A stretch of 64,000 nucleotides of DNA from Escherichia phage WPEC1, in the sequence record PV659873.1. One strand, written 5' to 3'. A model generated the notes under the pieces. It saw only the letters and a list, made by a program, of their open reading frames with translations, ran no database searches and had not been told where the DNA came from. This document shows positions 59,804 through 60,475 of the stretch, piece after piece; within the stretch, counting starts at the first letter, position 1, and every line of letters starts with the position of its first letter. The position numbers and the translations under genes were made by a program.

Positions 59804-60475
59804 ATGAAAAAGTTTGTTGTTTACAGTCGTCTTTCTAAACAGAAAAAAGGTGAGGCACAATATGGTATGGAGAGCCAAGAGAACGATATCCGTTACTTCT
59901 TAGACTCTGTGCCTGATGCTGAAGTTATTGGTCAATTTTCTGAATACTATTCGGGTAAGGGCGATTGGAAGCAACGTAAGGAACTGGTCAAAGCGGTTGA
60001 AATGTGTAAAGCTACCGGAGCAACTTTATTGGTAGCTAAAGTTGACCGCTTGGGTCGTAACAACGCCTCTGTAGCAACTCTTCTGGAGATGATCGATGTT
60101 AAGATAGCCATCATGCCAGACGCAGATAAAATGGTTATACAGCTTCTATCTGTTCTGGCTGAACAAGAAGTTAGAGGTATTGCTGATCGTATTAAAAAGG
60201 GTCTTGCTGTAGCAAAAAGCAAAGGTGTTTTATTAGGCAGTGCTAATCCTAAAACTGCCGCTGCACGTAGAAAAGGAAAAATGGAATACAACTCTGTTAA
60301 AGCCGACGCTTTTGCAGAGACATTTCGTGAACGTTTGGAGATCCTTAGAGATTTAAATACACCTTACAAAACTATTGCTGAAAAATTCAATAGTAAGAAA
60401 ATAGCAACAGCACGTGGTGGTAAATGGGATGCTAAAACTGTTTCTCGTTTGTGTGCCAGACTTAACATTAAATAG
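59804..60475 (+). CDS. serine recombinase (resolvase/invertase family)
   Basis: 223 aa; catalytic-region pattern VVYSRLSKQKKG...ESQ, LVAKVDRLGRN, C-terminal HTH-like region; ATG 59804 after AGGAG. Confidence 0.65.
   Translation: MKKFVVYSRLSKQKKGEAQYGMESQENDIRYFLDSVPDAEVIGQFSEYYSGKGDWKQRKELVKAVEMCKATGATLLVAKVDRLGRNNASVATLLEMIDVKIAIMPDADKMVIQLLSVLAEQEVRGIADRIKKGLAVAKSKGVLLGSANPKTAAARRKGKMEYNSVKADAFAETFRERLEILRDLNTPYKTIAEKFNSKKIATARGGKWDAKTVSRLCARLNIK

Follow-up and report, generated by a model that had tools for sequence, protein, structure and literature searches.

Described serine recombinases and the Phapecoctavirus gene

Among the described systems, the "DNA invertase" of the Phi92_gp053 type in Justusliebigvirus has the same domain layout as the recombinase considered here and a promoter of its own, and its phage is likewise a strictly lytic myovirus of 150 kb from this subfamily; it differs in its locus, which lies between the homologs of gp179 and gp180. 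With the invertases Gin, Hin, Cin and Pin our recombinase has the catalytic domain and the E helix in common, but it is without the HTH_7 domain, the adjacent invertible segment and the flanking 26-bp inverted sites. With the Tn3 and gamma-delta resolvases and Sin it shares catalytic fold and residues, small size and an N-terminal position of the catalytic domain. Here, however, there is no transposase neighbor and no recognizable three-part res site upstream, and the C-terminal domain is longer, modeled with five helices and like that of the large serine recombinases. The large serine integrases themselves (Bxb1, PhiC31, SprA of SPbeta and TP901-1, all above about 400 aa) are similar in the E helix and the start of the recombinase domain, whereas the phage protein has 223 aa and is without the rest of that domain, the zinc ribbon and the coiled coil; moreover, no attP-like site accompanies it, and the phage was not found integrated in any of 5,426 complete E. 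coli genomes. In TnpA of IS607, an N-terminal MerR-like HTH is followed by the catalytic domain, an order that is reversed here. Finally, recombinases of the same length and full-length architecture, at 32-40% identity, are found on small plasmids and on viral contigs of 30-60 kb, and many of these have an AACG-NN-CGTT palindrome upstream, in contrast to the lytic-phage clade, which has none.

The gene lies on the plus strand at 59804-60475 of a 64,000-nucleotide stretch of Escherichia phage WPEC1 (PV659873.1), hereafter the window, and encodes 223 aa plus stop. The open reading frame begins with an ATG at 59804 and closes with a stop codon ending at 60475, and a ribosome-binding site, AGGAG at 59794-59798 (+), can be read directly nine bases 5′ of the ATG. 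The window is Phapecoctavirus DNA, 97-100% identical in this region to about 70 records of the genus, and the gene is the ortholog of gp216 (YP_007348417; NC_020079, 16627-17298) of the reference phage phAPEC8, with the same locus and the same neighbors. The annotation of gp216 as a recombinase dates from 2012 and carries the note "putative site-specific recombinase"; other Phapecoctavirus records use serine recombinase, resolvase, DNA invertase or recombinase family protein. The gene and its general label are already known, and it is a real, intact recombinase gene. Many records of the genus mislabel it as "methionine ABC transporter ATP-binding protein" or "putative ABC transporter ATP-binding protein". 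The papers on ESCO5, ESCO13 and ESCO37 deny that any recombinase is encoded (PMC5374246, PMC10269720), and our literature search found no functional study of, or experiment on, this recombinase. Phapecoctaviruses are used as therapeutic candidates, and such labels and statements matter for phage safety screens.

The protein is strongly conserved: 62 Phapecoctavirus records match it at 99% identity or better, and more than 60 deposited genomes carry it with 100% identity. Of the 672 nucleotides, 11 differ between the window and phAPEC8, all 11 of them synonymously, with 0 of 223 residues changed. Strong purifying selection acts on the recombinase throughout the genus. Its neighbors are small open reading frames on the same strand with no assigned function, and a Pfam search of these neighbors returned no match except DUF7202, found at full length (E=1e-36) in the 70-aa open reading frame directly 5′ of the recombinase (59521-59733, +). 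Four paralogous early open reading frames of 108-132 aa flank the gene on both sides (57182-57508, 57941-58267, 60851-61249 and 62141-62527, all +); they have the common motif "...FY..YL.W...GAP.G.PF.R..GLC.NL..." and no Pfam match. A conserved partner gene was sought, and the neighbors differ in every genus. Phapecoctavirus is described as a lytic genus, and no nucleotide match to the region of the gene turned up in the 5,426 complete E. coli genomes, which is consistent with a strictly lytic phage.

The sequence-only reading had seen a resolvase/invertase-type serine recombinase among the early genes of an apparently lytic phage, and both the protein class and the setting were borne out. Pfam Resolvase (PF00239) matches residues 5-142 (E=5.2e-18; 66 bits against a cut-off of 23.3), PHROG_125 ("DNA invertase") matches the whole length at 2.6e-32, and PF07508 ("Recombinase") gives a sub-threshold match to residues 187-216. 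The NCBIfam models Mpi (NF009949; 22.6 bits against a cut-off of 272) and YneB (NF049883; 32.5 against 175) both fall below threshold. In a 27-member family alignment reaching down to 31% identity, Tyr7, Arg9, Ser11, Gly21, Gln25, Arg58, Asp81, Arg82, Arg85 and Glu120 are invariant. The Y-x-R-x-S motif with its nucleophilic serine is present together with the conserved Arg/Asp/Glu set, and conserved residues align with D67, R68 and R71 of gamma-delta resolvase. Thus nucleophile and partner residues are all in place, and the protein is predicted to be a catalytically competent small serine recombinase.

The AlphaFold (AF2) model (pLDDT 88) has the serine-recombinase fold. It comprises a catalytic alpha/beta domain (residues 1-105; 59804-60118, +) with the Ser11 codon, TCT, at 59834-59836 (+); a long E helix for oligomerization and strand exchange (residues 109-139; 60128-60220, +), which contains the invariant Glu120; and a five-helix C-terminal DNA-binding domain (residues 149-219; 60248-60460, +). 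By sequence, the closest solved proteins are the Tn3 and gamma-delta resolvases, Sin and Gin, and the E helix aligns to those of Gin and gamma-delta resolvase. Foldseek matched the model to the recombinases of Bxb1 (the top match), Sin, TP901-1, SPbeta and PhiC31, and also to catalytic domains of IS607-like TnpA. The family profile scores best on the Gin catalytic domain (4m6f), with E=1e-16; in the same profile, residues 117-217 align to the E helix of SPbeta integrase and the opening portion of its recombinase domain, and the match on that integrase (9dxd) spans residues 141-244. The HTH_7 domain of the Hin/Gin type is absent, Pfam giving PF00239 and the weak PF07508 match alone. Taken together, model, Foldseek and family profile point to a small serine recombinase whose C-terminal end, as modeled, resembles a truncated recombinase domain of a large serine integrase and not the HTH_7 of Hin and Gin.

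Upstream region and candidate recombination sites

The 70-bp gap 5′ of the gene holds a promoter candidate and one weak palindrome, and nothing else. The promoter candidate, a sigma70-like TTGACA-17 nt-TAAAGT at 59746-59774 (+), matches the consensus at 10 of 12 positions, stands 29 nt before the start codon and is the best in the region. The phage phiWec179 has TTGACA-18-TAAAAT at the same place, and PD06 and ICP1 have similar sites. That the gene has its own promoter, as had been proposed, is plausible; in the scan for sigma70-like sites, promoter-like matches were no commoner than chance. This putative promoter is the sole conserved non-coding feature before the gene, and the gene is probably transcribed early, by host RNA polymerase. 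The palindrome, AATAAATACcttgacaaGTGTTTATT, is imperfect, spans 26 bp at 59736-59761 (no strand assigned) and overlaps the -35 hexamer, with a score (6) within the chance range. It could be an operator or the remnant of a site. No second copy with up to 6 mismatches was found in the whole 147.7-kb phAPEC8 genome. Weak imperfect palindromes lie over the -35 at -68 from the start codon in Phapecoctavirus and at -67 in PD06.

In the wider family the picture is a different one. We confirmed 460 homologs in IMG/VR, and nine metagenomic viral contigs among them, at 32-40% identity, have a single palindrome of 34-46 bp with an AACG-NN-CGTT core, 30-73 bp 5′ of the start (loci L034, L036, L041, L058, L064, L076, L085, L091 and L094). 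Counts of the exact core, 6 in 18.9 kb of upstream windows and 12 in 757 kb of background, amount to an enrichment of about 20-fold, and no second copy of the palindrome was found within 6 kb in these relatives. Copies in predicted prophages of isolate genomes keep the gene-proximal half alone (CGTTGACATTTG; loci L022, L024 and L026-L029), and these half-sites look like hybrid attL or attR. The palindrome is a candidate crossover site for an uncharacterized family of small serine recombinases. Relatives at 36-40% identity lie on non-mobilizable plasmids of 5.8-6.4 kb, where the expected role is multimer resolution. Others are found in one satellite-like element and at the edges of prophages, where in two relatives the gene adjoins tail or baseplate genes. 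The upstream palindrome and the plasmid and prophage settings together suggest that the wider family uses one site per replicon, just 5′ of the gene, which is also the arrangement of integrases and resolvases.

From the lytic clade this site is missing, the members checked being Phapecoctavirus, phiWec179, PD06, FBKp34, ICP1, the Vibrio and Shewanella phages and three metagenomic contigs. The AACG-NN-CGTT core was sought 5′ of the gene at 12 loci of lytic phages and other close sequences and was absent from every one. At the corresponding upstream position, Shewanella phage 1/40 carries a 34-bp palindrome that is unrelated. Elsewhere in phAPEC8, two classes of core were considered as sites and rejected: the exact core is present in one copy (129337), with poor arm symmetry and at chance frequency, and the 48 copies with one mismatch have arm symmetry at chance. 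The genome's only strong palindrome (38 bp, 6144-6181) was likewise set aside as a recombinase site, no link to the recombinase having been found. In phage muut it keeps its collinear position and its structure, with a compensatory change in its outer arms (GCAATAAT.../...CTTATTGC against GCAACAAT.../...ATTGTTGC). It lies in a 1.5-kb non-coding region (phAPEC8 5520-7022) outside the window, with short repeats and hairpins, conserved across Stephanstirmvirinae. Many deposited records begin 230-600 bp downstream, and the region is probably an origin or packaging region (ori/pac).

The reading that we favor, tentatively and with more doubt than conviction, is that of a recombinase, expressed early, whose site is found a single time in each DNA molecule; it would be of the resolution or fusion type and not an invertase. 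Ser11 would make a concerted double-strand break by the usual serine-recombinase chemistry, and strand exchange would then take place between two copies of this once-per-molecule site. The outcome would be resolution or fusion on replicating phage DNA and not inversion within one genome. Cre/lox carries out such a reaction in P1, and one of this kind is also expected of the small-plasmid relatives. Since the family appears to use single sites per replicon, recombination between copies of one phage site is favored; and since the protein is universal and unchanged across phages from many E. coli pathotypes, its target is probably constant and not strain-variable. Several findings weigh against resolution or fusion. 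The relatives' palindrome is missing from every lytic-clade member checked, the cassette has changed locus between genera without any recognizable site, and the case for early expression rests on a promoter consensus match. Moreover, multimer resolution is not obviously needed where packaging is from concatemers, as in this phage, and short direct terminal repeats are reported for a member of the subfamily.

A promoter-plus-ORF cassette at different loci

The gene is a self-contained cassette of 0.73 kb, promoter plus open reading frame, and its position differs from genus to genus. The homolog in Justusliebigvirus PD06 (YP_009984790; 57% identity over the full length) is part of a 729-bp insertion between the homologs of phAPEC8 gp179 and gp180, in a nucleotide-metabolism block. 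The locus is about 15 kb away and lies in an oppositely transcribed gene block. The insert consists of a promoter-like site (TTGACT-17-CATACT), the open reading frame and the next gene's ribosome-binding site, and at its borders we found no flanking or terminal repeats and no target duplications. Yet other contexts are seen in Klebsiella phage FBKp34, in ICP1 (2017 DRC isolates) and in Vibrio phage 1.063.O. In ICP1 2017_DRC_48 the homolog, at 30% identity, is in a block (1745-5857) between GP41 and GP30, whose genes are without the "previously called GPxx" labels that the flanking genes bear; the ICP1 tblastn matches listed are all 2017 DRC isolates, and the block may be a variable accessory region. 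All genomes compared within a genus carry the gene at a single locus, and no empty sites were seen. An intact recombinase without a recognizable site is kept in two strictly lytic 150-kb genera and in unrelated lytic Vibrio and Shewanella phages, and the reason for its retention could reveal either a step in the processing of replication intermediates or an anti-host function acting in trans.

The latter is the main rival to resolution or fusion and the most interesting of the readings, although we consider it unlikely: the protein would be a weapon or host-takeover factor that excises, inverts, fuses or cleaves host, prophage, satellite or defense-island DNA. The gene has no site in cis, it sits among early genes behind a host-type promoter, it moves as a promoter and open reading frame and nothing more, and in ICP1 the homolog is in a block that may be variable and is seen in some isolates only. 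Its relatives look like the integrases and resolvases of temperate elements and plasmids, so that cognate sites would exist on such elements, and there is precedent for recombinase activity turned on a rival element in Adi and the PLE integrase (PMC9638900). On the other side, the protein is unchanged and present in all members of the genus whatever the strain of isolation, unlike typical arms-race genes. Moreover, the 5,426 complete E. coli genomes contain no relative of the gene at the nucleotide level and so give no sign of a cognate element in this host. The more specific proposal, that a strictly lytic phage keeps an early-expressed, site-less recombinase for action in trans on foreign DNA, excising, scrambling or cutting a conserved host locus or a resident prophage, satellite or defense island as a step in host takeover or counter-defense, appears to us more doubtful still.

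The other readings are less likely than action in trans. The changes of locus among Phapecoctavirus, Justusliebigvirus, FBKp34, ICP1 and the Vibrio phages, and an insert made up of promoter and open reading frame alone, would also suit a selfish mobile cassette, a minimal serine-transposase-like element of no benefit to the phage, and the Foldseek match to IS607-like TnpA catalytic domains points the same way. However, a fixed locus in each genus with no empty sites is not what such a cassette predicts, the PD06 borders have neither terminal repeats nor target duplications, the domain order is the opposite of that in IS607 TnpA, and the whole protein is under strong purifying selection. We therefore regard the selfish cassette as improbable.

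Repeats, genome collinearity and the question of inversion

The proposal that the recombinase might invert or rearrange phage DNA had been made with reference to extensive inverted duplications in the genome. These are present in the letters of the window, where dozens of repeats of 77-157 nt, at 99-100% identity and in both orientations, occur between about 9.5 and 49 kb, but they are not a property of the phage. When placed on the phAPEC8 map, the window resolves into 14 large collinear blocks, shuffled in order and orientation, with 57 small pieces between them. The scrambled stretch extends from 9564 to 49283 (no strand), and its small pieces, of about 75-81 or 149-156 nt, lie among shuffled contigs. 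The two length clusters (75-81 and 149-156 nt) correspond to k and 2k-1 for k=77. Thirty-eight of the 57 pieces overlap the ends of large blocks, and the other 17 derive from four loci that are presumably the ends of blocks beyond the window. The duplications are missing from phAPEC8, which is properly assembled: its comparison with itself gave no repeat longer than 48 nt, and its inverted repeats are limited to terminator-like elements of 18-22 nt and one local palindrome. The phage collection contains no record that follows 22-32 kb of the window collinearly. The scrambling differs among the sister records WPEC2, WPEC4 and WPEC6, in which a query maps to 9-16 places, in contrast to 1-2 in all other genomes. 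The duplications in the window are thus fragments of a k=77 de Bruijn assembly graph that were joined into the record, and not biology. The contig junctions were also considered as recombination sites and rejected, the 14 junction sequences having no k-mers in common beyond random. The recombinase itself sits in an unaffected block, 53764-64000 of the window being equivalent to phAPEC8 10581-20824. The window and records of the WPEC type are unsafe for structural inference. As it stands the locus is of little importance: the gene has long been annotated, and the hint of rearrangement is an assembly artifact.

As a stand-in for the detection of inversion isomers we used deposited genomes, which as consensus assemblies hide rare isomers. 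The region from 4.5 to 29.4 kb of phAPEC8, which is the gene with 12 kb on either side, maps to a single collinear place in each of the independent Phapecoctavirus records listed, with two places only where the start of a record cuts the query. For 29-50 kb there is one place in 60 of the 60 records listed, and for the tail and tail-fiber module (75-100 kb), 136 places in 132 records, collinear. Coarse counts of records with at least 80% of the query in one place were 56 for 50-75 kb, 63 for 100-125 kb and 57 for 122.7-147.7 kb; these are summary counts from which small inversions could escape, and the survey as a whole begins at 4.5 kb. About 55-65 independent Phapecoctavirus genomes are therefore collinear around the gene and across the tail-fiber module, and mapping to many places is confined to the three scrambled WPEC records. 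The sequence-only reading had noted no obvious crossover sites beside the gene, and this observation stands: around it (58.8-61.5 kb), direct and inverted repeats are at chance level, 10-33 nt at 70-90% identity. In phAPEC8 no inverted repeats were found flanking any tail gene, and among 28 dyads with perfect 9-bp arms none has an arm sequence in common with another. In the IMG/VR relatives, inverted repeats anchored 5′ of the gene are not enriched (3 of 80 loci against 4 of 240 controls), and all three matches are local palindromes. The recombinase is an orphan, with no adjacent partner site, no invertible segment and no transposon context.

For a Gin- or Cin-like invertase that flips or otherwise rearranges the phage genome, one can cite the "DNA invertase" label of PHROG_125 and of several GenBank records, the best profile match on the Gin catalytic domain, and the two prophage relatives beside tail or baseplate genes. 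Against it stand the artifactual origin of the duplications from which the idea arose, the lack of inverted repeats flanking the gene or the tail genes, all of which are on one strand, and the collinearity of 55-64 independent genomes over gene and tail module, with coarser counts elsewhere. The protein has no HTH_7, upstream-anchored inverted repeats are not enriched in the 80 related loci, and the 26-bp palindrome before the gene is unique in the genome. Of the two observations that the original proposal would have taken as telling against it, one was made and the other was not: no inversion isomers are seen among the deposited genomes, and the catalytic serine is there, as Ser11. At the level of consensus genomes the sequences largely refute inversion, and we give the idea very little credence. 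No more credible is a protein that serves mainly as a DNA-binding regulator, for instance an autorepressor at the -35 palindrome with vestigial recombination, for although resolvases autoregulate at res and Phapecoctavirus and PD06 both have palindromes over the -35 (at -68 and -67), the family alignment shows no variation at any catalytic residue, which is unexpected for a pure DNA binder, and the palindrome scores lie within the chance range.

Two further observations concern the records. In the window the tRNA cluster is split between 8052-9484 and 24544-25015, with a stray tRNA-Gln at 30543-30610 (-). Near-identical Phapecoctavirus genomes (97-99%) have been deposited under the names of Acinetobacter, Campylobacter and Klebsiella phages, and one near-identical record bears a Pseudomonas organism name; for a genus of coliphages, such host labels look doubtful.
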